Shown here: positions 5,719 through 59,935 of the stretch, piece after piece
Layout of the letters: each line of letters starts with the position of its first letter
Position numbering within the stretch: the stretch's first letter is position 1
Origin: Chitinophagales bacterium
GTDB taxonomy: Bacteria; Bacteroidota; Bacteroidia; Chitinophagales; Saprospiraceae
Direction of reading: 5' to 3'
DNA length: 64,000 nt
Assembly (NCBI GenBank): GCA_043764095.1
Contig: JAYUKX010000056.1
Span: 74,175-138,174 of the forward strand
The notes under the pieces: generated by a model
Told to the model about the DNA's origin: nothing
Databases searched by the model: none
Seen by the model: the letters and a program-made list of their open reading frames with translations, nothing else
Position numbers and translations under genes: made by a program

Positions 5719-7878
5719 TTATTCATAAAAATTCACTTTACCCGTTTCTACATCATAAAGCCCGCCTACTATTTTAATTTTTCCCACCTTTTCAAGTTCA
5801 CAAATCAGCGTACTCTCTTGCCTTATTCTTTCTATGGTACAAAATACGTTTTGTTCGGCCACTTTATCTACAAATACGCTATTTGAGCCATTTCTGTACT
5901 CAATCACTGTTTTTTCGTTTTCAATAGCAGGTTTTACTTTTTCTAAAAGTGAGGTCAAGTTACCAAGTTTTACATGATTACATGCGCCAATGATCGCGCC
6001 GCATTTGGTGTGTCCTAGTACAACGATTAGTTTTACCCCAATTTCGTGTACCCCAAATTCCATACTACCCAATATATCTTGGTTCAAAATATTCCCCGCA
6101 ATTCGAACACTAAAAATATCACCAAGCCCCAAGTCGAAAATATGCTCGGTAGTCGTTCTGCTATCAATACAACTCAAAACAATCGCAAAAGGATTCTGCC
6201 CAAACGACGTTGCGTTCAACTGGTGTTTTAAGTATTTTTCAGACGAATTTCCACTTACAAAACGTTCGTTTCCAACTTTCAAAATATTCAAAATGACTTC
6301 GGCAGTTAGTTTTTGTTGGCCCGCTTTATCCAACACATTCACAAACTGTATATGGTCGTCTAATTTGTAGATTTCCTTGAGTCCAAGAATATTTAATTTA
6401 ATATTTTTTTCTTTTGAAACAGTCGTTTTGAAATCATTTATTATTTCTAATACGTCATTATCAATAAAGTCGGAATAAGTGGCATCAATAATTACTTTTG
6501 AGTTTTGGGGTACGCTCCATAAAGTATCTTTGATCGATGCCTTATTCAAAAAAGATACTTGGTTGGGCAACTCCAATCGCATCGTTTCATCTTCGTGCAT
6601 TGTTTCTTTTTGTAGCACAAATGGATTTAAGAAATTGCTTTTTAAAATATAAAAAATACTAATCGCCAAGCCAATTAAAACACCAAGCAGCAAATCGGTA
6701 AATACAATAGCCAAAATAGTGGCAATAAATGGAATAAATTGATCTTGCCCTTTGCTGTACATCTCTTTAAACAGCGAAACTTTTGCCAATTTGTAACCCG
6801 TGAATATCAAAATACACGCCAATGAAGCCAAAGGAATCAAATTTATGATAGGGCTTAGCACAACAATACTGCACAATAAAAATACACCGTGTAGAATAGC
6901 AGACAACTTGGATTCGGCACCAGCATTAATATTTACTGAACTCCTAACAATGACAGAAGTGATTGGGATACCACCCACCATACCTGAAAACATATTGCCA
7001 ATTCCTTGTGCTATTAGTTCTCTATTGGGAGATGCTTGCCTTTTACGAGGGTCAATATTCTCCACAGCCTCCAAATTGAGTAAGGTTTCCAAAGAAGCAA
7101 TGATCGCAATCGTAAACGCTACAAACCAAACCTGCACATTACCTATACTACCAAAGTTGGGTAATGTAACCATAGAACTTATACCCTCAAATTTTGGAAT
7201 ATTCACTAAATGCTCCGTTGCAATGGCTATACCGGGAAACATATTTTGAAATAAGGCATTGAGTACTACCCCAAGGATAACGACAAATAAAGAGGCAGGA
7301 AATATCTTTACTTTTTTCATCGGTGTTTTATCCCAGTATATTAATACCAAAAGAGAAATGACTGAGATGATAATTGCGCCCCAAGAGAAAAAATTAAAGA
7401 TATTCAATAACTCCGAAAACGTATTTTCGCCATCTTTTTGAAAAAAGGTAAAGTCATCTTCTGTATCTCGGTCAAAACCAACAGCATGAGGGATTTGTTT
7501 AAGTATCAGGATAATACCGATCGCCGCCAATAATCCTTTAATTACATTGGATGGGATATAGTTGGCGATAAACCCAGATTTTGCGATACCGGCAATCAAT
7601 TGGATGGCTCCAGCAATCACTACGGCTAATAAAAACGTATCAAAACTACCTAATTGAGTAATTGATGATAGCACTACCGCTGCTAATCCCGCGGCAGGGC
7701 CACTGACGCTTGCATGCGATTGGCTCATAGCCCCAACGACTAATCCACCAATTATTCCAGCAATTATTCCTGATAATAAAGGTGCGCCACTCGCTAATGC
7801 AACACCCAAACATAAAGGAAGGGCTACTAAAAACACAACTATACTAGCCGGTAAATCATTCTTAACTGTTGAAAACAT
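5719..7878 (-). CDS. SulP-family anion (bicarbonate/sulfate) transporter fused to STAS and a C-terminal beta-carbonic anhydrase
   Basis: 719 aa. The N-terminal part is a SulP membrane domain, followed by a STAS-like segment. The C-terminus carries SCIDSRTTTEHIFDLGLGDIFSVRIAGN and VVLGHTKCGAI, the beta-CA Cys/Asp-Arg/His-x-x-Cys zinc site. Confidence 0.9.
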   Translation of the reverse strand: MFSTVKNDLPASIVVFLVALPLCLGVALASGAPLLSGIIAGIIGGLVVGAMSQSHASVSGPAAGLAAVVLSSITQLGSFDTFLLAVVIAGAIQLIAGIAKSGFIANYIPSNVIKGLLAAIGIILILKQIPHAVGFDRDTEDDFTFFQKDGENTFSELLNIFNFFSWGAIIISVISLLVLIYWDKTPMKKVKIFPASLFVVILGVVLNALFQNMFPGIAIATEHLVNIPKFEGISSMVTLPNFGSIGNVQVWFVAFTIAIIASLETLLNLEAVENIDPRKRQASPNRELIAQGIGNMFSGMVGGIPITSVIVRSSVNINAGAESKLSAILHGVFLLCSIVVLSPIINLIPLASLACILIFTGYKLAKVSLFKEMYSKGQDQFIPFIATILAIVFTDLLLGVLIGLAISIFYILKSNFLNPFVLQKETMHEDETMRLELPNQVSFLNKASIKDTLWSVPQNSKVIIDATYSDFIDNDVLEIINDFKTTVSKEKNIKLNILGLKEIYKLDDHIQFVNVLDKAGQQKLTAEVILNILKVGNERFVSGNSSEKYLKHQLNATSFGQNPFAIVLSCIDSRTTTEHIFDLGLGDIFSVRIAGNILNQDILGSMEFGVHEIGVKLIVVLGHTKCGAIIGACNHVKLGNLTSLLEKVKPAIENEKTVIEYRNGSNSVFVDKVAEQNVFCTIERIRQESTLICELEKVGKIKIVGGLYDVETGKVNFYE

Positions 7879-23216: not shown

Positions 23217-24752
23217 TCAAAATGGAATATCTTCATCGTTCATACGGGAAGGGATAGAAGTAGATGGCGTAAATGGCCCCGACAAAGAACTTTCCATACT
23301 GCCGGAGAAGGATGGGTCGTCGAGGTTAGAAAATTTGGCAAAAGTGTCCGTAAACTTAATTTTTACAGTATCCAATGCACCATTCCTGTGTTTTGCCACG
23401 ATAAATTCGGCTACACTTTTCAAACTTTGGCCTTCTTCGTCTTCCAAAATACCGTAGTACTCCGGTCGATAAATGAAGGAAACAATATCAGCATCCTGCT
23501 CAATGGCACCAGATTCACGTAAGTCACTCAATTGTGGACGTTTGTTGCCACCGCGGGTTTCCACAGCACGGCTCAATTGCGAGAGTGCAATCACGGGCAC
23601 GCTCAGTTCCTTGGCCATATTTTTCAACGCACGTGAAATACCCGAAATTTCTTGTTCGCGGTTGGTGTTTTTACCTTCGGAAGAACCCGTCATCAATTGA
23701 AGGTAGTCAATAATCACCATTTGGATATTGTGCTGCATTTTGAGGCGACGGCATTTAGCGCGCAACTCAAAGATATTGATACCCGGCGTATCATCGATAA
23801 AAATTGGTACTTTCGATAGTGTATCTACTGTTTTTTGGAGTTGTTGCCATTCCCAATCTTCCAGTTTGCCATTCCGCATTTTGGAGCCTTGTATTTCGGC
23901 TTCCATGGAGATCAAACGCGACACCAATTGTGTACTACCCATTTCTAGCGAAAACAGCGCAACTGGTTTCCCAAAATCCTTAGCGGCATTGAGGGTCATG
24001 GCCAATACCATACTCGTTTTACCCATACCGGGTCGTGCCGCAAGGATGATTAAATCGGAGGGTTGCCACCCCGAAGTGAGCCGATCCAGATCCGTAAAAC
24101 CAGTAGGAACCCCTGTGAGGCCATCGGCTTTTTGCGACATTTCCTCAATTTGCTTGAGTACCTTGCTCGCCAATGTGTCCATCGATTCGTAACTCCTGCT
24201 CAGGTTGTTTTGGGTAATACCAAATAATCCTTTTTCGGCATCATCGAGTAGGTCAAAAACATCGGTAGTGTCCTCGTATGCATCCTTGATAATACCCGTA
24301 CTGACGCGGATCAATTCGCGTTGGATATGTTTCTGAGCAATGATACGAGCATGAAATTCAATATTAGCCGCTGATGCTACGCGGTTGGTGAGCTCTACCA
24401 AATAATACGGACCACCTACTTTTTCTAAATCACCACTTTTGCGCAACTCCTCTGTTACTGTTAACAAATCGACAGGATTGGAACGCTCAAATAATTTAAT
24501 CACCGACTTATAAATATGCTGGTGTGCTTCGAGATAAAAGCTATCCGAACGCAAAATATCCATCACCACAGGCAAGGCTTCCCGATCAAGCATTAACGCA
24601 CCCAGCACCGCTTCTTCTAATTGAAGTGCTTGTGGTTGTACTTTGCCAAACACGTAAGTGGAAAGCCCTTCTGCATTTTGTCGAGAAGAGTTCTGTTTAC
24701 CTTTTCGGTTCGAACTACCTTGTTGATCTGATTTTGAATATTCTTCTGCCAT
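23217..24752 (-). CDS. dnaB: Replicative DNA helicase DnaB
   Basis: 511 aa with Walker A AARPGMGKTS, IIDYLQLM and SQLSRAVETRG motifs, plus a low-complexity N-terminal tail. Confidence 0.95.
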   Translation of the reverse strand: MAEEYSKSDQQGSSNRKGKQNSSRQNAEGLSTYVFGKVQPQALQLEEAVLGALMLDREALPVVMDILRSDSFYLEAHQHIYKSVIKLFERSNPVDLLTVTEELRKSGDLEKVGGPYYLVELTNRVASAANIEFHARIIAQKHIQRELIRVSTGIIKDAYEDTTDVFDLLDDAEKGLFGITQNNLSRSYESMDTLASKVLKQIEEMSQKADGLTGVPTGFTDLDRLTSGWQPSDLIILAARPGMGKTSMVLAMTLNAAKDFGKPVALFSLEMGSTQLVSRLISMEAEIQGSKMRNGKLEDWEWQQLQKTVDTLSKVPIFIDDTPGINIFELRAKCRRLKMQHNIQMVIIDYLQLMTGSSEGKNTNREQEISGISRALKNMAKELSVPVIALSQLSRAVETRGGNKRPQLSDLRESGAIEQDADIVSFIYRPEYYGILEDEEGQSLKSVAEFIVAKHRNGALDTVKIKFTDTFAKFSNLDDPSFSGSMESSLSGPFTPSTSIPSRMNDEDIPF

Positions 24753-24756
24753 TTCG

Positions 24757-24764
24757 CAAATATA
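24757..24764 (-). promoter_or_regulatory. -7 promoter box (TATATTTG on the minus strand) placed 4 nt before the dnaB ATG
   Basis: The minus strand reads TATATTTG-CGAA-ATG. Confidence 0.45.
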
Positions 24765-24816
24765 GCATGAATTTGGTACTTCATACTTTCAAAACAATCC
24801 GTATTGACCCCATTTC

Positions 24817-25015
24817 TGTGGAAAAGCCAAGTCGCAATGTTGATAACTATGGGAATAAAGTGGGTTACTCACATGATTTATTGGTTTTCCACACTATTTA
24901 TCCACAAGGCACCTTTAATGTTAAGCCTAGGTTAAGTGCATGAATAATAGACAGTTAGCATAGAATTTCAAAAGAAAATCACTGTGCGGGAATACTTTTT
25001 ACTCGATGTGGACAA
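24817..25015. promoter_or_regulatory. Cluster of five DnaA boxes, either a DnaA-regulated dnaB promoter or a candidate oriC/DnaA-titration site
   Basis: The boxes are TTATCCACA at 24898-24906 (perfect), TTTTCCACA at 24885-24893, TTTTCCACA (minus strand) at 24817-24825, TTATCAACA (minus) at 24838-24846 and TTGTCCACA (minus) at 25007-25015. An AT-rich, T-run-rich tract follows at 25016-25079. Confidence 0.5.
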
Positions 25016-25079
25016 CTTTTTTTAAAATGATTTTGACACACAAAGATACTATTTTTTGTTTGGATTTTTTTTGTTTTTG

Positions 25080-25115
25080 TTGGTGGTTAGTCGAGATGAG
25101 TTGACTAACCACCAA
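25080..25115 (-). terminator. 13-bp perfect hairpin just after the PD40/TolB-like gene; no U-tract on the minus strand
   Basis: TTGGTGGTTAGTC-N10-GACTAACCACCAA lies 8 nt downstream of the stop at 25123. Confidence 0.35.
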
Positions 25116-25122
25116 CCCAACA

Positions 25123-26214
25123 TTAATCTACCCAATCTGCTACAAAAACATTGGTATCACGTCCGCCACCATTGTCGCGGTTACTACAGAATACCAGTTT
25201 TTTGCCATCGGGAGAGAACATAGCAAATGCATTAAAAATACTTTCCGTTGTGATCTGGGTTAGACCAGTACCATCTATATTGATCATGTACAACTGAAAA
25301 TCGTATCCACGCGTGGCATGGTGGTTGCTGGAAAAAATAATTTTTTTACCATCGGGATGGAAATAAGGTGCCCAATTGGCCTTACCCAATTTGGTAATTT
25401 GCTTAAGGTTGGTACCATCCACATTTACCGTATAAATTTCCATATTAGTGGGTGCTACCAGCCCTTTAGCCAAATAATCTTTGTATTCTTTAATCTCCGC
25501 TTCGGTAGTCGGGCGGCTCGCTCTGAACACCAATTGTTTGCCATCGGCGGAGAAAAACGCACCGCCATCATAGCCTAATCCGGTCGTAATTTGTTTTTGA
25601 TTGGAGCCATCCGTATCCATGATCCATAGTTCTAAGTCACCGGAGCGATCGCTGGTAAATACAATTTTGTCGCCCTTTGGACTTACCACGGCCTCTGCGT
25701 CATAGCCTTTTGTATTGGTCAATTGTTTGATCAATTTACCTTTTTTATTGGCTACAAAAATATCATAAGTATCAAAAACAGGCCATAAATATTTGCCTCC
25801 TTCGCGCAAATTACCCGTATGTGGGCAAGACGCACCGCCTTCGTGCGTGCTGGCATAAAGAATATCTTTCCCGTTTGGCATAAAAAACGAGCAAGTAGTA
25901 CGGCCTTTCATGGTACTGATCGGCTTTGGGCGATAAGTTGGGTTATTGGCCGCTTTATCCACATCAATCCTAAATATTTGATCGCATTGCAGTCCCCATT
26001 TAGGGTTATTGCTCTGAAAAGTAAGGAATTTGCTGTTCGGACTCCAATAGGCTTCCGCATTATCACCGCCAAAAGTGATTTGGCGAATATTTTTTAAATG
26101 TACCTTCTCCTCTACGGCAGGTTTAGGAGTAGGAGTTGCCTCTGTTTTTTGAGCAGATAGTATATGAGTGCTCAATAACGCGCACAAAATAAAATTACGA
26201 CTGAGTAATTGCAT
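25123..26214 (-). CDS. Periplasmic PD40/WD40-like beta-propeller protein (TolB-like)
   Basis: Repeated PD40 motifs are present (WSPNSKFLTF, SPKGDKIVFTSDRSG, FSADGKQLVFRASR, FHPDGKKIIFSSN, FSPDGKKLVFCSNRD). I chose the start at MQLLSRNFILCALLSTHILSAQ (signal peptide); the ORF is open to 26292. Confidence 0.8.
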   Translation of the reverse strand: MQLLSRNFILCALLSTHILSAQKTEATPTPKPAVEEKVHLKNIRQITFGGDNAEAYWSPNSKFLTFQSNNPKWGLQCDQIFRIDVDKAANNPTYRPKPISTMKGRTTCSFFMPNGKDILYASTHEGGASCPHTGNLREGGKYLWPVFDTYDIFVANKKGKLIKQLTNTKGYDAEAVVSPKGDKIVFTSDRSGDLELWIMDTDGSNQKQITTGLGYDGGAFFSADGKQLVFRASRPTTEAEIKEYKDYLAKGLVAPTNMEIYTVNVDGTNLKQITKLGKANWAPYFHPDGKKIIFSSNHHATRGYDFQLYMINIDGTGLTQITTESIFNAFAMFSPDGKKLVFCSNRDNGGGRDTNVFVADWVD

Positions 26215-26465
26215 AGAATAATGTTGTTTTACGATGATGTTTTTTTTTAAAAACGGCGCAAGATTAGCAATTAAACCTAACAATTCAGTCAATTTTTAGT
26301 CAATTTTATATATGCTGATGTGCGTTACCTTAACAAACAACGGGAAAGTACTTACCCGCAAAAAACAGAAGGGCATGTTATGCGAGGCTAAAACAATTTT
26401 ATTGGAATGGTAATCAACAATTTAATACACTTGAACATATTCATTTGAGGTACGTATTTTGGCCG

Positions 26466-38694: not shown

Positions 38695-41600
38695 ATGAAA
38701 AGCAAATTATTACTGTTGTTCTTATTTTCTTTTTCGATACTCCGGGCGCAGGAGTTTTTTAAATCCATCCCATCAAATCAGTTACCTACTGCTGAAAATG
38801 GTAAAGCACGCACTTGGATGCCAACCGCTTACAGCGCGTGGCAACTCAATTTGAACGCCCTTTCTGCGGCGATTCAATCCGCTCCGATGGAATTTACTAC
38901 TGCTGCATACTACAACAATTCATCCGTGGTGGCTATTCCGCAACCCGATGGACGCACGGAGGATTTTGCTATATTTAAGGTGCAATCTTGCGAACAAGCG
39001 ATTTATGACAAACACCCGGAAATCAGGACTTTTGCGGGTCGTTCGTTGAGCAATCCAGCAAAAACTATCCGTGGTAGTATCACGATTCGCGGTTTTCGAT
39101 TGATGATTAACGAGGAAGATAAAAGTACTTCTTTTGTAGAACCTTATTTAGAAGGCAATACAATGTACTATTTGGCATATCGGGTAAATGCTATTTCGAA
39201 AGATCTTTTCCCACAGGGCTTGTCGCGCGGCGTTGCGCCCAATGCACCTGAAAACACACTACCCGATGTAGCGGCTTTGGCTACAACCAGTGGCGTTTCG
39301 GAGCGGAGTACCGAATTGGTGCAATTAAAAAAATACCGTTTGGCTGTTTCTTGTACCGGTGAGTTTGGTCAAGATCATGGTGGTACCAAAGAAGGTGCCT
39401 TTGCAGGTATTGTTGAATACGCCAACTGGACGAGTAGCCTTTTTGAAAGAGATATGGCATTGCGGCTGGAATTGGTAGCCAAAAGCGAAGATGTGGCCTT
39501 TTTTGATCCCGTAACGGATCCGTTCCCGAGTACTAATCCACTTTCTTTATTGGCGACTAATGGACTGGTCATTAATGGTTTTGTTGGTATTGATAAATAC
39601 GATATTGCACATAATTTTTCTCGTTATGATCCTGCTACTGCGGGCGGAATCCTTGGTGTAGCGGGTGCTATCGGCAATGGCTGTGTAGAAAGCAACAAAG
39701 CAGATGGCGTTTCTACGGGTTTTAAAAACGTTGATTATGGTGCTAACTTTGTAAATACTATTGGTCAGGAACTCGGCCACCAGTTGGGAGGAGGACATAC
39801 CTGGAACCGTTGCGGTGGCGGTAATGGCCGCAATGGATCAAGTGCTTTTGAACCGGGTAGCGGCTCTACGATTATGTCGTATGGAGGTGCTTGTGGTAGT
39901 GATAATGTACAATCCGATTCTGATTTGTATTTCCACGCGGGTTCTATTGAAGAAATTAAAGCGTATTATACCTTCTTTTTTGGGGCAACTTGTGGTACAT
40001 TTACCGAAACAACCAACCATATTCCTCAAGTAACGCTACCTTATACCAACGACTTTTTTATACCAATCAAAACCCCTTTTGAACTCGATGGTAGTGCAAC
40101 GGATGAAGATGGTGATACGATTTCTTATTGCTGGGAACAAATGAATACGGGTCCAGAAACGCCTTTGCAAACGCCTGTGGGTAATTCTCCTTTGTTCCGG
40201 ACTTGGCCACCAAATGCCAATACGAATCGCTATTTCCCAGCGTTGGGTAAGGTATTGGCCAATACTTTTGAGGTAACGGAGCAATTGCCTACCTATTCCC
40301 GCGATTTGGATTTCCGCCTTTCAGCGCGGGATAATCGCCCAAGTGATGGCGGTACCAATTGGGCCGATGTGTCCTTCCGCGCAACAGATTTGGCGGGGCC
40401 ATTTGTGGTGATGCAACCCAATCTAGCGTCTGTATCTTGGAAAAGTGGTGAATATGTGGCTGTAAAATGGGATGTTTCCAATACCTTCGCCGCTCCAGTC
40501 AGTTGTAAAAAAGTAAATATTCGCCTCAGTACCGATGGTGGTCTTACTTGGCCTACTACACTCGCAACAGGTGTAACCAATGATGGCGAACACACGATAA
40601 GTGTACCAAATATCGTGACCACCAAAGCCCGTATCCGCGTTGATGCAGCGGATAATGTGTTTTACGATGTTTCCAATTTTAACTTTAAAATAGAAGCACC
40701 CACGCAGCCTTCATTTACGGCGGCAATGAGCGAAAATTCGGGTACACTTTGCTTGCCCAATACGTTCACCGCCGAAGTACTCACGGCTGCTGTTTTGGGC
40801 TTTAGCAATACCGCAACGATTGAGATTGTTGCTGGTAATTTACCTGCCACCGCAACAGTATCTTTAAGCAAAACAAGCGTGCAACCGGGCCAATCGGCTA
40901 CGCTTACTGTGGATATGTCTAATGTAACACAAGCGGGTATATTTACTTTTGATATCAAAGTGAGTGCTGCGGGTGCTACTGATGTCATTTTCCCAGTTAC
41001 AATTACAACAATTACCAATGATTTCTCCACTATGGCGCTGCAATCACCTTCTGATGGTAGTTCCAATTTGGTGCAATCGCAAATATTACGTTGGACAAAG
41101 GCTACTGATGCAGAAACTTATAACCTCCAATTGTCTACCAGTGCGAATTTTGCACCGGGTACTATTGTCGCTACCAAAAGCAATACCCAGTTGGATACGT
41201 TCAAAATACCATTCCTTTTGGAGAAAAGCAAGGCGTATTACTGGCGCATTCGCCCCAATAATGCTTGTAGCCCGCATGCTTGGACAGAGCCGTATTTCTT
41301 TTCAACGCTGACCGAAAGTTGTGCTAATTTTGGCCCGGCGGATCTACCCAAAAGCATTGCGCCGGGTATTTCTTCCGTCATTGAATCTAAAACAGAATTA
41401 TTATCCAATACGATTATTACGGATATCAATATCAAGCAATTAAAGGGTTTTCATGGCGAATTTTCCGATTTGGATGTACGTTTGATTTCACCTGCTGGTA
41501 CCGAGGTGACCTTATTTAAAAGTAAATGTCAGGGATATAATGGCGTTTTTGATTTGGCACTAGACGACAGCGCTCCCAGTTCGTTCTCTTGTCCGCCAAG

Positions 41601-42363
41601 CAATTTAGGTAACTCGTATGTACGTCCACAAACCCCATTAGCGGCTTTTATTGGTCAAAGTGCGCAAGGTATCTGGACGCTGCGCCTCAAGGATGTACTG
41701 GCTGGCGAAGGCGGTACTTTGGAATCGTTGCAATTTGATATTTGTCAGTCATTGGAAGTAAATCCGCCAACAATTGTCACCAATAATATTCTCGGCTTGG
41801 ATAATGGAACGAATAAGGTTGTTTCTTCCGATTATTTGTTGATTAATGATGCCGATAATACCCACGAACAATTGGTTTTGACCTTGTTAACAGTGCCTTA
41901 CCACGGCTACTTGGCCAAGGATGGTATCTCATTGGTGCAAGGTGACAAATTTACCCAATCCGATATAGACAATGGCATTATCCGTTATTACAATGATGGA
42001 ACAGGGGCAACCAGCGATTATTTCCGTTTTGTGGTGAGCGACGGCAATGGCGGTTTTTATGGTACACCTACCTTTTTGATCCAAATCACGGTAGATGCGC
42101 CTGAATTGGCGGCCAACAACTACGCTTTCCGCCTTTCTCCCAATCCAGCACAGGATGCAGTTTGGATTACATTGGAGCAACCTGTAATGGATGATTTAAG
42201 TGTTTTGGTGTATAATACATCGGGACAATTGGTGCGCTCGGAGGTGATGGCCCGCGGCAATACACGCCACCAAATCATGATGGCTACTTTGCCTCGTGGT
42301 ATGTATTTTGTACAGGCCAGCGGTAAAGATGGCGTGCGCGTGGAGAAATTGATGTTGAAATAA
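38695..42363 (+). CDS. T9SS-secreted reprolysin-like metzincin homologue with a variant zinc motif (QELGHQLGGGH), a proprotein-convertase P-domain, a cadherin/CSPG-like domain and a type A CTD (paralogue 1)
   Basis: 1222 aa with a signal peptide. The motif is IGQELGHQLGGGHTW with Met-turn GSTIMSY. The P-domain reads DLDVRLISPAGTEVTLFKSKC...GIWTLRLKD. The CTD reads LSPNPAQDAVWITL...GMYFVQASG. Confidence 0.85.
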   Translation: MKSKLLLLFLFSFSILRAQEFFKSIPSNQLPTAENGKARTWMPTAYSAWQLNLNALSAAIQSAPMEFTTAAYYNNSSVVAIPQPDGRTEDFAIFKVQSCEQAIYDKHPEIRTFAGRSLSNPAKTIRGSITIRGFRLMINEEDKSTSFVEPYLEGNTMYYLAYRVNAISKDLFPQGLSRGVAPNAPENTLPDVAALATTSGVSERSTELVQLKKYRLAVSCTGEFGQDHGGTKEGAFAGIVEYANWTSSLFERDMALRLELVAKSEDVAFFDPVTDPFPSTNPLSLLATNGLVINGFVGIDKYDIAHNFSRYDPATAGGILGVAGAIGNGCVESNKADGVSTGFKNVDYGANFVNTIGQELGHQLGGGHTWNRCGGGNGRNGSSAFEPGSGSTIMSYGGACGSDNVQSDSDLYFHAGSIEEIKAYYTFFFGATCGTFTETTNHIPQVTLPYTNDFFIPIKTPFELDGSATDEDGDTISYCWEQMNTGPETPLQTPVGNSPLFRTWPPNANTNRYFPALGKVLANTFEVTEQLPTYSRDLDFRLSARDNRPSDGGTNWADVSFRATDLAGPFVVMQPNLASVSWKSGEYVAVKWDVSNTFAAPVSCKKVNIRLSTDGGLTWPTTLATGVTNDGEHTISVPNIVTTKARIRVDAADNVFYDVSNFNFKIEAPTQPSFTAAMSENSGTLCLPNTFTAEVLTAAVLGFSNTATIEIVAGNLPATATVSLSKTSVQPGQSATLTVDMSNVTQAGIFTFDIKVSAAGATDVIFPVTITTITNDFSTMALQSPSDGSSNLVQSQILRWTKATDAETYNLQLSTSANFAPGTIVATKSNTQLDTFKIPFLLEKSKAYYWRIRPNNACSPHAWTEPYFFSTLTESCANFGPADLPKSIAPGISSVIESKTELLSNTIITDINIKQLKGFHGEFSDLDVRLISPAGTEVTLFKSKCQGYNGVFDLALDDSAPSSFSCPPSNLGNSYVRPQTPLAAFIGQSAQGIWTLRLKDVLAGEGGTLESLQFDICQSLEVNPPTIVTNNILGLDNGTNKVVSSDYLLINDADNTHEQLVLTLLTVPYHGYLAKDGISLVQGDKFTQSDIDNGIIRYYNDGTGATSDYFRFVVSDGNGGFYGTPTFLIQITVDAPELAANNYAFRLSPNPAQDAVWITLEQPVMDDLSVLVYNTSGQLVRSEVMARGNTRHQIMMATLPRGMYFVQASGKDGVRVEKLMLK

Positions 42364-42474: not shown

Positions 42475-45400
42475 ATGAAAGGTAAACTATTACTCATATT
42501 ATTATTCCCTTTTACTGGGCTTTCGGCACAGTCATTTTTTAAATCCATTCCAGCAGGAATGCTTCCAGCAGCCAAAGATGGTGCAACGCGCACGTGGACA
42601 CCGTCGGAATACACCGCTTGGCAACTCAATTTGGATGCCCTTTCTGCGGCGATTCAATCAGCCCCCATTGAATTTACACCTGCTGCTTACTACAATAATA
42701 CATCGGTAGTAGCCATTCCGCAACCCGATGGCACTACGGAGGACTTTGCCATTTTTAAGGTGCAAGCCTGTGAGCAAGCCGTTTACGACAAACACCCCGA
42801 AATCAGGACTTTTGCTGGTCGTTCTGTGCGTAATCCAGCCAAAACGATCCGCGGTAGCATCACTATTCGAGGTTTTCGAGTGATGGTTACAGGCGACAAT
42901 TATAATACATCATTTGTAGAGCCTTATTTGGAAGGACAAACAGATTATTATTTGGCCTATAATGCCAGTGATGCACCCCATGACCTCCTGCCTCCGGGGC
43001 TTACCCGTGGTGTAGATCCAAATACACCAACTTATATCCGCCCCGAACTGCCTGCTACAGTTACACAAGTGGCCGAGCGCGGAAGTGCGGAGTTGGTACA
43101 ATTGAAAAAATATCGTTTTGCTGTTTCCTGCGCGGGTGAATTTGGAGCTGACCACGGTGGTACAAAAGCATTGGCATTTGCGGCAGTGGTAGAATATTCC
43201 AACTGGGTGAGTAGTATTTTTGAAAGAGATATTTCCTTGCGCCTCGAATTGTTAGCTGTTTCGGAGGAAATGTCGTTTTTCAATCCCAGTACTGATCCAT
43301 TCCAATCCCCTATTACCGAAGAATTACTTGCAACGAGTAGTATTGTCATCAATGGTTTTGCTGGAATAAACGGCTATGACGTAGGACACGTATATGGTCG
43401 TTATGTATCTGGTGCCGGTGGCATTGCCGGTGGTAATGGTTGCGTATCGACGAGTAAGGCTAGAGGCGTTTCAACTGGTGATGGTGGTAATAACTATGGC
43501 CCCGGGTTTATCAGTATCATCGGACAGGAAGTAGGACACCAATTGGATGCCGGACATACCTGGAACCGCTGTAGCACGATTGCTGGCCGTGCCGGACAGA
43601 GTGCCTTTGAACCGGGTAGCGGCTCTACGATCATGTCGTATGCGGGTTCGTGTGGTAGCGATAATGTGCAGGGTTATTCGGATTTATACTACCATTCGGG
43701 GTCTATTGAAGAAATTAAGCGGTTTTATACATTTTTTTTTGGTGCTAATTGCGGCACATTAACGGAAACGACAAATCATCATCCTACAGTTACGTTGACT
43801 TATACCAACGACTTTTTTATTCCCATCAAAACGCCTTTTGAACTCAATGGTATTGCAACGGATGAAGACGGCGATGCGCTTTCTTATTGCTGGGAGCAAA
43901 TGAATACCGATATTGAAACACCGCTACAAAGTCCCGCAGGGTCAGTGCCATTGTTCCGTACTTGGCTACCCAATGATAAAACCAACCGCTATTTCCCAAC
44001 CTTGGCCACGGTGTTATCCAATGGATTTGATGTTACGGAACAATTGCCCACGTATTCCCGCGATATGGATTTTCGCCTCACTGCCCGCGATAACAACCCA
44101 AGCGGTGGCGGTGTACATTGGGCCGATGTTTCTTTCCGCGCAACAGATTTGGCGGGGCCATTCGTCGTACAACAGCCGAATACCGCAACAGAAATTTGGA
44201 AAATTGGCGAATTTGTGGCTGTAAAATGGGATGTAGCCAATACGTTTGCTGCGCCCGTCAATTGTAAAAAAGTAAATATCCGCCTTAGCACCGACGGCGG
44301 TCTTACTTGGCCAACCACCCTTGCAACTGGTGTAGCCAACGATGGAGAACATACCATAAGCGTGCCAAATACCACTACAAACAAAGCCCGGATTCGTATT
44401 GATGCAGCAGATAATGTATTTTTCGATGTATCAAATACCAATTTTAAAATAGAAGCACCCACACAACCTTCTTTCACAGCAGCGATGAGCGAAAATTCCG
44501 CTTCGCTTTGTTTGCCCAGTAGTTTTAGTGCACAAGTACTTACCACTTCTGTTTTAGGGTTTAATAATCCCGCAACGATCGCCATCGTACCGGGAAATAT
44601 GCCCTCAACGGCTGTTGTTACACTTAGTACCAACACTGTGCAGCCAGGCGAATCGGCTACGCTCAATGTGGATATGTCAGATGTAAAGCAATCAGGTACT
44701 TTTACGTTCAATATTAAAGTGACGGCCACCGGCGCAGCAGATATTGTATTCCCAGTAACGATCACAACCATTACGAGTGATTTTTCTACCATGGCACTGC
44801 AATCCCCTTCTGATGGTAGTACCAATTTGGTGCAGTCGCAAGTATTACGCTGGTCAAAGGCTACTGATGCAGAAAGTTATAACCTCCAATTGTCTACCAG
44901 CGCGTCTTTTGCGCCGGGTACAATTATCGCCACCAAGAGTAATACACAATTGGATACGTTTAAAATACCATTCCTTTTAGAGAAAAATAAGGCGTATTTC
45001 TGGCGTATTCGACCCAATAACCCTTGTGGGCCACATGCTTGGACAGAGCCTTATTTCTTTTCAACTTTAACAGAAAATTGCGCCAAATTTGGCCCTGCTG
45101 ATCTACCCAAAAGTATTGCGCCGGGTATTTCTTCCATCGTGGAATCCAAAACAGAATTGATCTCCAATACCATTATTACAGATATCAATATCGAGGAATT
45201 AAAGGGTTTTCATGGCGAATTTTCTGATTTGGATGTCCGCTTGATTTCACCTGCGGGTACCGAGGTAGTCTTGTTCAAAAATAAGTGTCAAGGGTACAAT
45301 GGCGTGTTTGATTTGAGTATAGATGATAGTGCACCCAATGCCTTCTCGTGTCCGCCCAGCAATACAGGCACAGCGTATGTACGCCCACAAAGCCCATTAT

Positions 45401-51712: not shown

Positions 51713-54700
51713 ATGAAGAAATTTTTCCTTGTAGCAGCGGCTTTTCTTTTTTTGGCCCTGAATCTTGTAGCGCAAGCCCCCATTAACAATGAATGTGCAA
51801 CAGCCATTAATCTTGGGGTAGCACCATCATGTGATACCAGTATTGTGTATTCCAATGACAACGCTACATTGTCGAATATTGGTGACGAGAACAACCCCTC
51901 TTGCTTTAATGGCGGTATCCCCAATAGGGATGTTTGGTTTTCTTTTGTTTGTCCCGATACACTCTTTGATTTTCGCATCCTACTCAGCGGGAATGGTGGG
52001 GTTTTAAACAGTATTGTTAACCCACAAATTGCTGTATATCGGGGCGATTGCACGTTTAATGACTTGTTCGAACTGTCCTGTGCTATTGCGGATGTAGGCG
52101 AAACGGGTGTTTATTTGGATTTGGCAGGGCTTACGCCCAATGTCACGTATTATATCCGTGTTTCGGATTATTCCTTGACTGCCGCGCCCAATTCGGGCAA
52201 TTTTACACTCTGCGTGGATAAACTCCCCGAGATTGTGACCATCGACCAAGGTAGTTCGAACCAATGTATGGGTACGATTACCGATTCGGGTGGCGCAAAT
52301 GGCGACTACAGCCCCAACGAGGACTATGTATTTACGATTTGCCCTAGCCAGCCTAGCGCTTGTATTACTTTTACACTGGAATATTTCAACATAGAAGAAA
52401 GTTTTACGGATGGGTTAACCATTTATGATGGCAATAGCATCAATGCACCGGAATTGGCTTCGATCAATTCTTTTGCATTTAGCCAAACTTCCGTCTCCGC
52501 TGGCGGTGGAGTTTGTTTTAAGGTACACGGTACCAGTCCCTGTATGACACTCCAGTTTTTGTCGGATGATTTTGTAGAGTTTGAAGGTTTCTTGGGGCAT
52601 TGGGAGTGTAGTAATTTGCCTTGTCCACCCGATGATATCCTTACGGTAAATTCACCTATTGAGAACCAAGTTATCGTAAATGCAGTAACGACCCCTGCAA
52701 CACAGGTCACCATTACGGATATTAAATGTAATACGGACGCTTATGGCTCTTTTAGTTATCCAACAGCCAATAACGATTTACAGATGACCAAGGGGCTGGT
52801 ACTTTCCAGCGGCCTTGTTGCTGATATACCTGGTTTTGGCCAAGATTTTGCGGGTACGCCATTGAACGAACCTGGTGATCCAGACCTTGATTTTCTTTCT
52901 ACGCAACAAGGTGGCCAAGAATCTTACGATGCTTGTGTGGTGGAATTGGATGTTTTTGTTGCCACCGATCAACTCAGTTTTGAGTATGTTTTTGGATCAG
53001 AGGAATACCCAGAATTTGTATTTGCGTCAGGAGGTTTTAATGATATATTTGCCTTTTTGGTTTCCGGCCCGGGTATTGTTGGGCAACCTGGTTTAAATGG
53101 ACAGAAGAACATTGCGGTATTGCCCGGTACTAATGTCCCTGTTGAAATTGACGCGGTGAATAACCAAGTTAATTGGGAATTTTATCGCAATAATGAAATA
53201 GGCGAACAAGTTATTTTTGATGGACTCACTTCGGATTATTTAGGCATAAAAAAATCCTTAACCGCCAAAACATCAGTAACACCTTGTAATACTTATCACT
53301 TAAAACTAGCCATAGCCGACCGTGGTGATGCGGCATACGACTCTGGCGTATTTGTTTCCGAGATCAAAGGCGGCACACCGGGGCTTGAAGTAGCGTTTGC
53401 GAGCGGTATTGAGTATTTTATTGAAAGTTGTTCGGGTACAGAAGATATGTTGATTATTTCGTTGCCAGAGCCATTACAACAAGCCACTACGTTTATCACG
53501 ACTATTTCGGGTACTGCTATTTTAGGTACCGATTATATTTTAGATCTTCCCGCTACCATTACATTTGCCGCAGGCCAAACCCAATTAATGTTTCCTATTT
53601 TCCCGATTCAAGATGCCTTGGATGAGGGTACAGAAACGATTAAAATTTCCTTGTCCAGTAATTTTGGATGCGGTACGGTATTGCTCAAAACCATTACCAT
53701 CAACTTGGAAGATAAAGTAGTGGTTGATATAAATGCAGGAGCGGATACCGTGTTTATATGTTTAGGATTTCCACTCGAAGTACAGGCAGAAGGAGCGGTT
53801 GACTATTTTTGGACACCAGTATCGGTGGTGAGCAACCCGACTATTGCCAATCCAATTGTTACAACTACACAAGATGTTATGCTTTTTGTAACAGGTACAG
53901 TAGGCACTTGTGTTTCTACGGATTCAGTATTGGTAAAAGTAATAAACCCAACCATCAATCTTATTGCCTTGAGCGATACACTGATTTGCGTTGGAGGCTC
54001 GGTACCACTCAATGCGATCAATAATGTTGATAATCAAGGACTTTCGTGGATTCCATCAACAGGATTAAACGACCCAACCACCAATTTGCCTATCGCTTCG
54101 CCTACTACTACGACCACTTATACCGCACGTTTGGATATTGGGGGATGTATCAAAACGGATCAAATTACGATCAAGGTAGATACCCTTTTTGAACCCGTGC
54201 TGATTGCGGATACAACTGTTTGCCAAAACTACCCCGTACTTTTGGGGACAGCAATAGAAGGGGAAAGCACCGTTTATCAATGGACACCAGCAGCAGGCTT
54301 GAGTAGTACAACGATTTCAAATCCATTGGCAACGCCCGATCAAACCACCACTTATACCTTGTTTTCACAAAGTGCTAATGGCTATTGCGATAATACAAAA
54401 CAGGTAAAAGTAACCATTATTGCAGCGGATATTGATATTGCAGGACCTGAAAAATACGAAATTTGTTTGGGGACTACCATTCCGCTACAAGCCGTGGTAA
54501 CCCCAGCGAGTGGCAGCCCAATTACATGGACGCCACCCTTCTTTTTAAGCAACCCAACAGGGCCCAATACAGTACTCAACACCGATGAATCTTTGACGCT
54601 AAAAGCCACTTATACGGTGAACGGCTGTAAAGTGACCGATTCTATCTATGTGCGCGTGGATTCGCTGCCCGATCTTACGTTAAGTCTGAAACCAGTTAAA

Positions 54701-56182
54701 GAAATTTATTGCCCCGGCGATACAGTTACACTATTCAGCACCACTTACGAACCGGCGAGTTTCCCATTTATACAAAATACTTGGTTACCCGATGGTTTAG
54801 GCCAAATAACGCCCGATTCTTTGTGGAATTTGGTGATTCGTGCCCAAGTTACGGATACGTTTACCCGCATCACCGTAAATAGAGGTTGTAGGGATACCTC
54901 ATCTATTGCTGTTCCGGTAGATTCGCTGCCCATCATTACGGCTACTGCTGCCAAATCAACGGTTTGTCCCGGAGAATTGGTACAATTGAATGCCACTGTA
55001 TCGCCCGAACAAAAACTAGAATGGGGCCCAGTAAATGGATTAAGTTGTACGGACTGTAAAAATCCTGTGGCAACCATCAATGGCACCATTACCTATACCG
55101 TTATGCCACCAGATGCCAACTGTCCGGCCTCGGCTTCAGTAACTATTGTGATGACACCAGCTCCCTTACTGGTTTTGCCCAATGATGCGACCCTGTGCCT
55201 TGGATCTACTTTTGTGCTCAATAATTTGCCTCCGGAGCCCAATACGACCTATCAATGGACATCGGTGCCACCAGGATTTACGTCCAGTTTACCACAACCA
55301 CAAGTCACCCCACTGGTTAATACCAAGTACTCTGTTTTGGCCTCCAATCCTGCCTGTACCAACAAAGATAGCGTTTCGGTAGAAGTAGTGAGCGCAACCG
55401 TAAATGCTGGTGTAGATCAAACTGTTTGTGCAGGTACTAGTTTTACTTTGAATGCAACACCCAGCGGATCAACAGGTTTATTTGCTTGGAATATATTAAA
55501 TGGCAATACCGTTGGCAATACCCAACAAGTCGCCCTGTCTGCCAACAATACGGCAACGTATCAGGTCGTATATACCTATAGTAGCGCGCTTTGTGTAGCC
55601 ACCGATGAAGTGACGGTCAAGATAAATCCAGTACCATCCCTAACACCGCTAACAATTGACTCGGCAGAGGTGTGTGCAGGAGAGGTAATCCGTGTAAAGT
55701 CAATATTACAAGGCGGAACAGCACCATTTACCTATAATTGGACATTGGATGGGGCACCAACCAACCCGGGAGCGAAAGACTCCATTAGCCTTTCGCTGGA
55801 TAGTGCATTGGATGGGCCAAAGGATTACCAAATTGGTTTATCCGTTGTAGATGCCAATGGCTGTGTATCGGAAGTGGAATCAGGAGGCGTAAAAGTAAAT
55901 AAATGCTTTGCGATTCCGAATGCCTTCACACCGGGGAACGGAGGGGTAAATGACTTCTTTGAACCCGTTGGTACAAGTGGTAGTACGCTAAATGTCACTA
56001 AATTTTTGGTTTATAACCGTTGGGGACAAAAAATATTTACCGCTAGCCCATCCGTACGTTCTTGGGATGGCACAGTGGGCGGCAAGGCAGCACCCATGGA
56101 TGTGTATATTTATCAAATCACCATAACCCGCCTTGATGGCATTGAAGAAAATTATTCCGGAGAAGTAAATCTAATCAGATAA
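51713..56182 (+). CDS. Giant surface adhesin carrying CUB-like, choice-of-anchor-L and Calx-beta-like domains, about ten Cys-containing Ig-like repeats and a T9SS type B (gliding-motility-associated) CTD
   Basis: I chose the start at MKKFFLVAAAFLFLALNLVAQA. The choice-of-anchor-L region reads NDIFAFLVSGPGI...LAIADRGDAAYDSGVFV. Repeated ~70-aa units fit C.G..v.L.A.G...Y.W.P...L. The C-terminus reads IPNAFTPGNGGVNDFF...YNRWGQKIF, a type B CTD. Confidence 0.85.
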   Translation: MKKFFLVAAAFLFLALNLVAQAPINNECATAINLGVAPSCDTSIVYSNDNATLSNIGDENNPSCFNGGIPNRDVWFSFVCPDTLFDFRILLSGNGGVLNSIVNPQIAVYRGDCTFNDLFELSCAIADVGETGVYLDLAGLTPNVTYYIRVSDYSLTAAPNSGNFTLCVDKLPEIVTIDQGSSNQCMGTITDSGGANGDYSPNEDYVFTICPSQPSACITFTLEYFNIEESFTDGLTIYDGNSINAPELASINSFAFSQTSVSAGGGVCFKVHGTSPCMTLQFLSDDFVEFEGFLGHWECSNLPCPPDDILTVNSPIENQVIVNAVTTPATQVTITDIKCNTDAYGSFSYPTANNDLQMTKGLVLSSGLVADIPGFGQDFAGTPLNEPGDPDLDFLSTQQGGQESYDACVVELDVFVATDQLSFEYVFGSEEYPEFVFASGGFNDIFAFLVSGPGIVGQPGLNGQKNIAVLPGTNVPVEIDAVNNQVNWEFYRNNEIGEQVIFDGLTSDYLGIKKSLTAKTSVTPCNTYHLKLAIADRGDAAYDSGVFVSEIKGGTPGLEVAFASGIEYFIESCSGTEDMLIISLPEPLQQATTFITTISGTAILGTDYILDLPATITFAAGQTQLMFPIFPIQDALDEGTETIKISLSSNFGCGTVLLKTITINLEDKVVVDINAGADTVFICLGFPLEVQAEGAVDYFWTPVSVVSNPTIANPIVTTTQDVMLFVTGTVGTCVSTDSVLVKVINPTINLIALSDTLICVGGSVPLNAINNVDNQGLSWIPSTGLNDPTTNLPIASPTTTTTYTARLDIGGCIKTDQITIKVDTLFEPVLIADTTVCQNYPVLLGTAIEGESTVYQWTPAAGLSSTTISNPLATPDQTTTYTLFSQSANGYCDNTKQVKVTIIAADIDIAGPEKYEICLGTTIPLQAVVTPASGSPITWTPPFFLSNPTGPNTVLNTDESLTLKATYTVNGCKVTDSIYVRVDSLPDLTLSLKPVKEIYCPGDTVTLFSTTYEPASFPFIQNTWLPDGLGQITPDSLWNLVIRAQVTDTFTRITVNRGCRDTSSIAVPVDSLPIITATAAKSTVCPGELVQLNATVSPEQKLEWGPVNGLSCTDCKNPVATINGTITYTVMPPDANCPASASVTIVMTPAPLLVLPNDATLCLGSTFVLNNLPPEPNTTYQWTSVPPGFTSSLPQPQVTPLVNTKYSVLASNPACTNKDSVSVEVVSATVNAGVDQTVCAGTSFTLNATPSGSTGLFAWNILNGNTVGNTQQVALSANNTATYQVVYTYSSALCVATDEVTVKINPVPSLTPLTIDSAEVCAGEVIRVKSILQGGTAPFTYNWTLDGAPTNPGAKDSISLSLDSALDGPKDYQIGLSVVDANGCVSEVESGGVKVNKCFAIPNAFTPGNGGVNDFFEPVGTSGSTLNVTKFLVYNRWGQKIFTASPSVRSWDGTVGGKAAPMDVYIYQITITRLDGIEENYSGEVNLIR

Positions 56183-57385: not shown

Positions 57386-57427
57386 ATCTAATTATATTTA
57401 TTCATCCAAGTTCTTTTATTGCTCAAC

Positions 57428-59935
57428 ATGAAAAGTTTAAATCAATTGGCCGCCACGGTATTGTTATTAATGCTAGGCCACACACTCCTGTCCCAAACCA
57501 TTACACTCAACCGCAGCCTCTGGACCAGATTAAACGAAACTCAAATTACCGTAAATGCTTCCGATCGCCAAATTATTCCAGAAGAATATTTGACTTACCA
57601 GCTAGATGTAACACAACTCCGACAACTACTCAGTAATGCGCCCTCTGAAGCGGATGTTTTGAACAACGATGCAACACCGCTTTTGATGGAATTTCCGACT
57701 CCCACGGGTGGTTTTATGCTCTACAGGGTTTCTGGGTTTACCATGATGCACCCTCAATTGCAGGCGCAATTTCCTGAAATACGGACTTTTTCGGGTACTT
57801 GCGTGGATCCTGCTGGAGGTGTAGTCTTTTTTGATTTTACGCCACAGGGCTTTCACTCCATGACACTTCGTTCGGAGCAGGGTTCGGTATTTATCGATCC
57901 TTATTCCAAGGCGGATGACCAGCATTACTTGGTTTATTACAAGAAAAACTTTGTAAGAAAAGAAAGTGACCGGATGGTTTGTCATGTCACGGAGGATTTT
58001 CCAGTACAGATCAAAGTGCCAGAAATGAACAATGCCGAACTTCCTGCTACCAACTGTACCAAGCGACGAGAATATCGCTTAGCATTGGCGGCAACAGGCG
58101 AGTACACGGCTTTTCATTCTCTACCAGGTGCTCCTGCTGTTGCTCTGGGACAAGCGGCCATTGTAACTGCGATGAACCGTGTTAACGGCGTATATATAAC
58201 CGAGGTAAGCGTACAAATGAATCTTATTGCGAATAATTCGACTGTCGTTTACACCAACGCTGCCACCGATCCTTATACGAATGGTAATGGGGTAACTATG
58301 TTGACTGAAAATGTCAATAATCTTAACTTGGTAATCGGAACGGCTAATTATGATATTGGCCATGTATTTAGTACTGGCGGCGGCGGCGTAGCCTCTACCT
58401 CTCCATGTGTCACTTCAAGCAAAGCAAGGGGTGTTACAGGTCTTACTTCCCCCATTGGTGATCCATTTTATATTGATTATGTAGCCCACGAAATGGGACA
58501 CCAATATAGTGGTTCTCATACCTTTAGTAGTACGGTGGGTAGCTGCTCTGGCAATGGTGTTGCTACGTCCGCGTTTGAACCGGGTAGCGGAACAACCATT
58601 ATGGCTTATGCGGGTATATGTTCACCCGAAAACGTACAAAATAACAGTGATGCCTATTTTCATGCGCGCAGTCTGCTTCAAATATCAAGTGCAATTGCCG
58701 CCCATACCTGCGAGTCCGAAATAGCCAATGGTAATACTGCGCCTAGTGTGGCCGCATTGACTAGTATTACGATACCAACCTCCACGCCGTTTGTCCTGAA
58801 TGGTAGTGCCACTGATCCTAGCCCATTGACTTATTGTTGGGAGCAATACAATAATGCCCAAGTATCACCACCCAGCGGTACCAATACAACAGGGCCTTTG
58901 TTCCGCTCATTGACACCTGTTTCGGAAACGAATCGGCATTTTCCAAGTTTTGACAATACTTTTAATGGTACTGTTGACCCCTGGGAAGTACTGCCTAGTG
59001 TAGCTCGATCCCTTATTTTTAGGCTAACTGCCCGTGATAATGCAACGGTGGGTGGCTGCTCCGATGAGAAAGATATTACAGTAACGGTATCTGCGGGTGG
59101 ACCATTTTCCATTACAGCACCGAATAGTGGTGCTTTTGCGGGCAACTCAACAACTACTGTTACATGGAATACGGCCAGTTCTGCCACGTATGCTCCCAAT
59201 GTGGATATTTTGTACAGTACTACGCCCTCGGATGCTAGTTCATATACACTTATTTTGGCCAATACGCCCAACGATGGAACGCAAGCCATCACAGTACCTA
59301 ATTTAACGACAAGTACAGCCCGTATTATGGTGCGTTCATCAAGCACGAATGGCACTTTTTTCTATGATATTTCCAATAATAACCTATCCATTTCATTGCC
59401 CGTGGAATTGGTCGGTTTTAATGCCGAAAAGCAAAAAAATCAGGTATTATTGCAATGGGAAACAGCCTCGGAGCAAGATAATCGTGGTTTCCATGTGCAA
59501 CGCAGCGTAAACAGTAGCCGTTATTTCGAAAATATTGGTTTTGTAGCCGCTACCAGCGAATTGAAGGCTAAAAATCTTTATAATTTTACGGATAAAGACG
59601 TTAAGTCCGGCAATATCTATTACTACCGCCTCCGTCAGGAAGACCAAGATGGCGATAGCAATTTGTCGGATATACGCAGTGTAAGTTTTGAAGGCGTAAC
59701 CGGACAATTACAAATTACGCCAAATCCAGCACGCGACTATATCCAACTCACCGCATCAGAGATGGATTGGGAAGATGTTTTTGAAATAACGATCATCAAT
59801 GCCGCTGGGCAAGTTATACGCCAAACAACAATGAGCCTCGATAATGCCTTATCTACCGTAGATTGGCCTGCTGGGGTGTATCTGATCCGCGCTGTATCGG
59901 AAAATAAAATATGGGCAGGTAAAGTAGTTAAGTAA
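57428..59935 (+). CDS. T9SS-secreted reprolysin-like zinc metalloprotease with the canonical HEMGHQYSGSH motif, a pre-CTD module and a type A CTD
   Basis: The signal peptide is MKSLNQLAATVLLLMLGHTLLSQ. The motif VAHEMGHQYSGSHTF lies at 58487-58501, with Met-turn GTTIMAY. The N-terminal and catalytic regions are homologous to 38695/42475. The C-terminus reads ITPNPARDYIQL...GVYLIRA. Confidence 0.85.
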   Translation: MKSLNQLAATVLLLMLGHTLLSQTITLNRSLWTRLNETQITVNASDRQIIPEEYLTYQLDVTQLRQLLSNAPSEADVLNNDATPLLMEFPTPTGGFMLYRVSGFTMMHPQLQAQFPEIRTFSGTCVDPAGGVVFFDFTPQGFHSMTLRSEQGSVFIDPYSKADDQHYLVYYKKNFVRKESDRMVCHVTEDFPVQIKVPEMNNAELPATNCTKRREYRLALAATGEYTAFHSLPGAPAVALGQAAIVTAMNRVNGVYITEVSVQMNLIANNSTVVYTNAATDPYTNGNGVTMLTENVNNLNLVIGTANYDIGHVFSTGGGGVASTSPCVTSSKARGVTGLTSPIGDPFYIDYVAHEMGHQYSGSHTFSSTVGSCSGNGVATSAFEPGSGTTIMAYAGICSPENVQNNSDAYFHARSLLQISSAIAAHTCESEIANGNTAPSVAALTSITIPTSTPFVLNGSATDPSPLTYCWEQYNNAQVSPPSGTNTTGPLFRSLTPVSETNRHFPSFDNTFNGTVDPWEVLPSVARSLIFRLTARDNATVGGCSDEKDITVTVSAGGPFSITAPNSGAFAGNSTTTVTWNTASSATYAPNVDILYSTTPSDASSYTLILANTPNDGTQAITVPNLTTSTARIMVRSSSTNGTFFYDISNNNLSISLPVELVGFNAEKQKNQVLLQWETASEQDNRGFHVQRSVNSSRYFENIGFVAATSELKAKNLYNFTDKDVKSGNIYYYRLRQEDQDGDSNLSDIRSVSFEGVTGQLQITPNPARDYIQLTASEMDWEDVFEITIINAAGQVIRQTTMSLDNALSTVDWPAGVYLIRAVSENKIWAGKVVK

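Follow-up and report, generated by a model that had tools for sequence, protein, structure and literature searches.

DnaA is known as a transcription factor, and in Escherichia coli the tandem promoters P1 and P2 of dnaA, with DnaA boxes between them, and the promoter of nrdAB are DnaA-regulated promoters of replication genes. Reports of direct control of the helicase gene are confined to Alphaproteobacteria and Actinobacteria. In Mycobacterium tuberculosis, DnaA was shown to bind upstream of dnaB/Rv0057, and the DnaA regulon of Caulobacter crescentus was reported to include dnaB (PMC7738170). No description of a DnaA operator at dnaB in Bacteroidota was found in the literature searched. The present analysis deals with a cluster of DnaA boxes directly upstream of dnaB, the gene for the replicative DNA helicase, in 64 kb of DNA from a Chitinophagales bacterium (contig JAYUKX010000056.1; this whole stretch is referred to as the window, and positions are counted from its first nucleotide). 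As judged from sequence comparison, the cluster is probably a DnaA operator of the dnaB promoter region, contained in a cis-regulatory module of approximately 330 bp that is conserved in a Saprospiraceae/Lewinellaceae clade, and its most likely role is the coupling of helicase expression to DnaA rather than the marking of the chromosome origin. The initial annotation had placed a chromosome origin (oriC) first and had named DnaA control of dnaB among the alternatives; the latter turned out to be the best fit, and the DnaA-site part of the annotation is strongly supported by the enrichment of boxes across related loci and by their fixed spacing and orientation. As in Caulobacter and M. tuberculosis, the replication gene whose promoter region carries the DnaA boxes is dnaB, and the arrangement is formally like that of E. 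coli dnaA P1/P2.

For the comparison, 77 related dnaB loci were oriented by dnaB, and 80 loci were used for the check on dnaA. The module was aligned in 37 loci, the window included, and their DnaB proteins are 65–100% identical to that of the window (best aligned segment). The window belongs to an ENA metagenome contig of 219 kb, and its closest relatives are metagenome-assembled genomes of Saprospiraceae/Lewinellaceae (Chitinophagales/Saprospirales). DnaA boxes were counted throughout at no more than one mismatch on either strand, unless stated otherwise.

The dnaB gene (23217–24752, minus strand) was identified by its match to TIGR00665 (557 bits, E = 2e-167), by which its position downstream of the cluster on the minus strand was confirmed, and the same call was obtained on the ENA contig k141_1327679. 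Rescanning of the sequence returned the five boxes within 24817–25015 (199 bp), at the coordinates and on the strands previously given, together with a sixth, degenerate one. Box d (TTTTCCACA, 24817–24825) and box c (TTATCAACA, 24838–24846) lie on the minus strand and point to dnaB, with starts 21–22 bp apart; measured from the dnaB -7 box, box d is centred approximately 57 nt and ends 52 nt upstream. The degenerate box b (TTACTCACA, two mismatches, 24865–24873, plus strand), which was missing from the earlier list, points away from dnaB and aligns with box b of the consensus, which reads TGTGGATAA toward dnaB. Box a (TTTTCCACA, 24885–24893, plus strand) also points away from dnaB, and 4 nt from it stands an extra perfect box (TTATCCACA, 24898–24906, plus strand), which is specific to the sub-lineage of the window, being present in the close relatives L002 and L004 and lying outside the 37-locus consensus. 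The distal box e (TTGTCCACA, 25007–25015, minus strand) is situated just downstream of a distal -7-like box. A second perfect TTATCCACA (25955–25963, plus strand) stands isolated within the TolB-like coding sequence next to the cluster and is probably due to chance.

The window contains 32 boxes against a shuffle mean of 20.1, and the chance expectation calculated from the window is approximately 0.06–0.1 boxes per 200 bp; the rate of 0.04 in the initial annotation was of the right order but is the figure for a uniform composition. The cluster is the sole spot in the window with five boxes per 200 bp, and the maximum in 300 Markov-2 simulated windows was three.

Across the 77 loci, box density reached 1.47 per locus in the bin from -200 to -100 upstream of dnaB versus approximately 0.05 per 100 bp elsewhere, which represents an enrichment of approximately 30-fold directly upstream of the gene, and it was raised over the range from -100 to -400. 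A non-coding module of approximately 330 bp is conserved ahead of dnaB in 37 of these loci and consists, in the order toward dnaB, of a distal promoter, an A/T run, an optional box, a TTAAY repeat, a conserved block, boxes a to d, an 18-mer and the -7 box. Boxes a, b, c and d are kept at aligned positions in 29, 30, 31 and 35 of the 37 loci, respectively (the count for box d includes four loci of a variant shorter by 10 bp). Boxes a and b point away from dnaB and boxes c and d toward it, with starts approximately 20, 27 and 22 bp apart; the gap is 18 bp in the central opposed pair, which is divergent, and 11–13 bp between tandem boxes. The optional distal box was found in 16/37 loci, in 12 of them in the opposite orientation and in 4 (the lineage of the window included) as in the window. 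The same arrangement of boxes beside the promoter of dnaB is seen in 34–35 of the 37 loci. More distant Saprospiraceae have just 0–2 boxes upstream of dnaB, and such a graded loss is typical of an operator and not of an origin.

The association with dnaB was also recovered by a metagenome search that was blind to this gene and used only the boxes in the geometry of b, c and d (an inverted box followed by two forward boxes, hereafter the triad). More than 120 matches were obtained, the geometry being enforced by the search pattern itself; five of them are Saprospiraceae dnaB modules, and all five have dnaB 69–150 bp downstream. The boxes are thus conserved together with the gene across species, both in the 77 loci and in 5/5 of the modules found from boxes alone.

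The most conserved element of the module is the near-invariant 18-mer (24787–24804, minus strand; ATACGGATTGTTTTGAAA in the window, consensus ATACGGATTGTTTGGAAA in the 37-locus alignment), which lies between box d and the -7 box, at a distance of either 1 nt or 10–12 nt from box d. Its 10-nt core gave 43 matches in 1.48 Mb of related DNA, of which approximately 38 are at this position upstream of dnaB, with approximately 7 expected by chance. The 18-mer has no match to a known motif and may be bound by RNA polymerase or by a second factor; in L063 and L066 two copies of it are present, 61 bp from each other. A direct repeat, TTAAC-N6-TTAAC, with a period of 11 bp (24920–24935, minus strand) is the copy in the window of TTAAY-N6-TTAAY, which was found in 18/37 modules, where the frequency in the 665 kb around them predicts 0.003 per 330 bp (approximately 100-fold enriched), and may be the site of a second DNA-binding protein. 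The repeat has the same form as the CtrA boxes of Caulobacter (TTAA-N7-TTAA). Adjacent to it, the alignment columns of the block TAA-N5-TAC-N3-TCA-N5-TTAA (24936–24963, minus strand) are conserved, and no match of this block to the E. coli IHF consensus was seen on inspection. A sigma-54 or IHF site was considered for the 18-mer and the conserved blocks and was rejected by inspection, as the spacing or sequence of the consensus did not fit. A non-coding RNA or riboswitch between the promoters was likewise rejected: no Rfam family was found at threshold, and RNAalifold gave no consensus pairs for 24 sequences, so the conserved blocks are taken as sites acting at the DNA level. In the 64 kb as a whole, no tRNA, rRNA or other Rfam family was found at gathering score.

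Promoter-like motifs flank the boxes on both sides. The proximal -7 box noted previously is present as TATATTTG, of the Bacteroidota type TAnnTTTG (24757–24764, minus strand), 4 nt before the dnaB ATG, and in 34/37 loci a TAnnTTTG stands in alignment with it, +38 to +41 relative to the ACGGATTGTT anchor. A TTG placed 17–22 nt upstream of it was found in only 4/37 loci, and the lack of a canonically spaced -33 TTG in most proximal promoters is consistent with dependence on an activator. In L072 an insertion of approximately 200 nt, rich in GTGTTT/AAACAC repeats, lies between the proximal -7 box and the dnaB start. At the other end of the module, the AT-rich tract with its A/T run (25016–25079, minus strand) aligns with a distal promoter facing dnaB, and the conserved distal motif is represented in the window by TATCTTTG (25041–25048, minus strand). 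A distal TAnnTTTG was found 245–300 nt upstream of the anchor in 32/37 loci, with a TTG 17–22 nt further up in 17/37, the TTG being absent from the lineage of the window itself. TTG-N17-22-TAnnTTTG is what we take to be the Bacteroidota -33/-7 promoter pattern, as in Bacteroides and Flavobacterium promoters. In the alignment of the distal block the two n positions are variable while TA and TTTG are kept, which is the signature of a promoter motif and not of mere AT-richness.

The reading as an operator builds on the observed sites, on how they are conserved and arranged, and on where they stand with respect to the promoter motifs. DnaA would bind the four phased boxes directly upstream of a core promoter with a good -7 box; the nearest box would be centred approximately 65–70 bp upstream of the expected start, a position that would suit activation of a weak promoter, possibly jointly with whatever binds the 18-mer, and the supply of helicase would then follow the level of active DnaA. 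The second, distal promoter, approximately 290 bp upstream, would read through the boxes and could be blocked by bound DnaA, the optional box being placed just downstream of it. Bound DnaA would also be titrated, which is compatible with a regulatory role. In comparison with the known DnaA-regulated promoters, the module belongs to another phylum, carries Bacteroidota -33/-7 motifs and has more boxes (four to six), which are rigidly phased, together with two extra conserved motifs, the 18-mer and the TTAAY-N6-TTAAY repeat. Its architecture is unusually elaborate and rigid.

Several points weigh against the operator. DnaA binding, the sign of the regulation and the use of both promoters are predicted from motifs and their positions. 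With 330 bp, four to six boxes, a repeat motif and an invariant 18-mer, the module exceeds most known DnaA-regulated promoters in complexity. As the -7 box is only 4 nt from the ATG, a leaderless or near-leaderless dnaB mRNA is implied, and has to be assumed, in the lineage of the window. The same triad geometry occurs in convergent, promoter-less spacers of other Bacteroidota, where it is no promoter operator and may be an origin, and a stronger rival origin in Saprospiraceae is so far an expectation.

Among the other explanations, the one that survives best, though unlikely, is that the cluster acts mainly outside transcription, as a DnaA-handling site (a datA-like site of sequestration or hydrolysis, or a Bacillus-type box cluster) that would buffer free or active DnaA, with its adjacency to dnaB incidental. 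DARS1, DARS2 and datA are likewise chromosomal box clusters outside the origin that modulate DnaA. Four to six high-affinity boxes with conserved phasing go beyond the need of a simple operator, the further conserved blocks might serve an architectural protein in the manner of IHF at datA, and the same triad is found in promoter-less places of other Bacteroidota. However, DARS and datA in E. coli act independently of a neighbouring promoter, whereas the boxes of the dnaB module are at a fixed distance to the 18-mer and the dnaB -7 box in 34–35 of the 37 loci; moreover, the offset between the two spacer variants is one helical turn, in favour of contact with the promoter apparatus on one face of the helix. 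The module was never seen detached from dnaB in the box-only search (5/5). The initial annotation had also suggested a DARS-like site, and this failed on geometry: the core of MG1655 DARS1 is TTATCCACT-5-TGTGGATAA-3-TGTGTATTA (box I, 5 bp, inverted box II, 3 bp, box III), that of DARS2 is analogous, and both are convergent and compact, whereas the central pair of the dnaB module is divergent with a gap of 18 bp. The box number is compatible with datA, but datA needs an IHF site, and no E. coli-type consensus was recognised in the module blocks by inspection; titration would in any case be compatible with regulation.

The next explanation, which we regard as improbable, is that the cluster is the oriC of the Saprospiraceae lineage, placed beside dnaB and not beside dnaA, at which DnaA would unwind the adjoining AT-rich tract. 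The box cluster is well above chance, and its five to six boxes in 200 bp form two opposed sub-arrays of consensus boxes as in E. coli oriC, with a tract of 80% A+T in the same spacer, as expected of a bacterial oriC with a basal unwinding system. With a DnaA-signature regular expression and tblastn (E. coli and B. subtilis DnaA as queries), dnaA was found neither in the window nor, for any of the 80 loci, in the 10 kb on either side of dnaB. Several other Bacteroidota have no box cluster within 6–10 kb of dnaA, so that origins not linked to dnaA occur in this phylum, and the arrays of three to four boxes with the same triad geometry in promoter-less convergent spacers resemble minimal origins. 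In the literature searched, nothing specific on the origins of Bacteroidota or Saprospiraceae was found. Against an origin, no origin-linked gene was found in the window, either dnaA (by tblastn) or dnaN, parAB, mnmG and rpmH (by comparison of the larger open reading frames with Pfam/NCBIfam).

The structure of the module also differs from that of an origin of the classical type. The classical origins recovered by the metagenome search have 10–27 boxes, often separated by 2–3 bp, with (CTA)n trios and an AT-rich element behind them (in the order box pair, GC cluster, (CTA)n, AT-rich stretch), lie beside dnaA and show an origin-like skew switch, whereas the dnaB module has four to six boxes 11–18 bp apart and a promoter-like AT tract, with no skew switch and no trios (a run of at least three DnaA-trio units was found in 0/37 modules). 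The AT-rich tract of the initial annotation is real, 25020–25079 being 80% A+T, but its proposed role as an unwinding element was not supported: it coincides with the distal promoter, approximately 200 bp from the conserved boxes. That distance to the nearest box applies in more than half of the loci, the conserved letters of the tract are those of the TTG-N17-22-TAnnTTTG promoter, and a box stands beside the tract in only 16/37 loci. Weak origins without trios may still exist in Bacteroidota.

GC skew was estimated in flanks of only ±10 kb for each related locus, and the contig of the window was extended to 80 kb. As a positive control, 15 classical origin arrays (at least eight boxes) with flanks of 3–10 kb were treated with the identical measure. 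The raw skew changed from negative to the left of the site to positive to its right, as at an origin, in 3/34 module loci versus 12/15 classical origins (Fisher p = 2e-6), and the right skew exceeded the left in 6/34 versus 13/15, respectively (Fisher p = 8e-6). Fourfold-degenerate sites were used to split transcription effects from replication effects; the pooled amplitude of the switch at these sites was -0.014 (95% confidence interval -0.032 to +0.005), and the left and right components were positively correlated (r = 0.47). Of the 16 loci in which each flank holds genes of both orientations, 12 had the same sign of skew across the site and one was origin-like. The checks on the fourfold signal were weak (r = -0.29, p = 0.08 versus AT skew, and none with gene orientation), and more weight was therefore given to the raw-skew comparison with the positive controls. 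No skew switch was seen at the cluster in 80 kb of the contig of the window (r = 0.001); no skew model was significant either in the 64-kb window or in the 80 kb, a result that is uninformative for this genome taken by itself.

The gene orientations adjoining the site were as the initial annotation described, but the switch in orientation that it took as the sign of an origin was not significant: 68% of the coding length in the window points outward from the site, and 44% of directon shuffles do as well (p = 0.44). The maximum of outward-pointing coding length in the window is 75% and is situated at 37.6 kb, not at the cluster; in the 80 kb of the contig approximately 70% of the coding length points away from the site, which is in favour of an origin. 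On the other side, the gene directly upstream is directed into the site at almost every locus, being co-oriented with dnaB in 35/36 cases (bin from -1000 to 0, 77 loci), and with the nearest genes set aside both flanks are approximately 54–55% co-oriented with dnaB across loci. Neither trios, the alignment of the AT tract, GC skew nor gene orientation gave support to the origin that the initial annotation had put first.

A combined explanation, which stands just behind a plain oriC and is doubtful, is that the module is a minimal, trio-less origin built on the shared box triad and fused to the dnaB promoter, in which assembly, firing and helicase expression would share one element. Its basis is the remainder of the matches from the box-only search, which comprise many classical origins beside dnaA and two Bacteroidota-looking groups with few boxes. 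In group A (L087, L095, L124, L126, L145) a convergent spacer immediately following a ParB-like gene holds exactly three perfect boxes, as an inverted box and forward boxes starting at +27/28 and +49, with no further box within 400 bp. The same three-box array was found in L101, which has 59% G+C and no ParB-like gene beside the array on its short contig and is probably not from Bacteroidota. In group B (L104, L118, L119, L125, L140, L158 and L213, with the array at 16199–16256 in L213), the convergent spacer that separates an M15 (VanX-like) peptidase gene from a Peripla_BP_2 gene holds four boxes, which are flanked on both sides, approximately 100 bp away, by ATGTAAGGTT repeats. The lineage of group B is Cytophagales-like by DnaA similarity. 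The dnaA gene is 1.2–4.7 kb from the array in L119, L125 and L213, and the related dnaA loci L208, L209, L211 and L212 have no array within 10 kb. In L207, a Bacteroidota-like metagenome contig of 9.08 Mb with dnaA at 6001–7422, no box cluster was found within 6 kb of dnaA, and its origin is therefore probably elsewhere.

Both groups have the same triad as the dnaB module, an inverted box followed by forward boxes at +27/28 and +49/50 (a geometry enforced by the search), and share with it the extended flanks (TGTGGATAACTC..., ...GTTATCCACA). They differ from it in that they stand where two genes end and have none to regulate, and in having neither the 18-mer nor the -7 box. The group A array could be the minimal origin of some Bacteroidota, and the group B array is a candidate origin not tied to dnaA. 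Should these arrays be origins, small origins without trios would occur in Bacteroidota, and the triad geometry in common would then be suggestive; with such minimal-origin-like arrays in the phylum, the low box number and the missing trios of the dnaB module are weak arguments against one. Lastly, a chance or neutral cluster lacking function is practically refuted by the conserved position, orientation and spacing in 37 loci and by simulated windows that never gave more than three boxes per 200 bp, and has in its favour nothing but the commonness of single boxes with one mismatch (32 in the window).

On the side away from dnaB, the module is bordered by a hairpin with a perfect 14-bp stem (25081–25115, minus strand; -26 kcal/mol, z = -7.0 versus shuffles), which directly follows the stop of the upstream gene. 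It has no U-tract and is a probable terminator insulating the module from that gene, which encodes a TolB-like/PD40 beta-propeller protein (25123–26292, minus strand), is co-oriented with dnaB and reads toward the module. At approximately 9480–9640 of L002, short tandem repeats of GTTCGGT/GTTCGCT replace the end of the TolB-like gene and the hairpin of the window. In L047, L048, L066 and L078 the dnaB matches cover 1974–2178 nt for approximately 485–500 residues and are thus 450–700 nt too long, pointing to an intein or some other insertion in this gene.

Elsewhere in the window, the open reading frame at 5719–7878 (minus strand) encodes a SulP-family anion transporter fused to a beta-carbonic anhydrase domain. 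Three paralogous genes for reprolysin-like (M12B) metalloproteases were found at 38695–42363, 42475–46122 and 57419–59935 (plus strand), the first two in tandem, and all three products have type IX secretion C-terminal sorting domains. A CHU_C-domain protein of 1497 amino acids is encoded at 51689–56182.

For the Bacteroidota, a box cluster together with an AT-rich tract is insufficient to call an origin, because the AT-rich promoter motifs of this phylum mimic unwinding elements. The recurrence of the triad in promoter-less spacers provides a lead to the poorly known origins of Bacteroidota. With its four phased boxes, invariant 18-mer and second repeat motif, the module at dnaB offers a defined experimental target, and if it is a DnaA operator, the coupling of DnaA and dnaB would be extended to a third phylum, the Bacteroidota.

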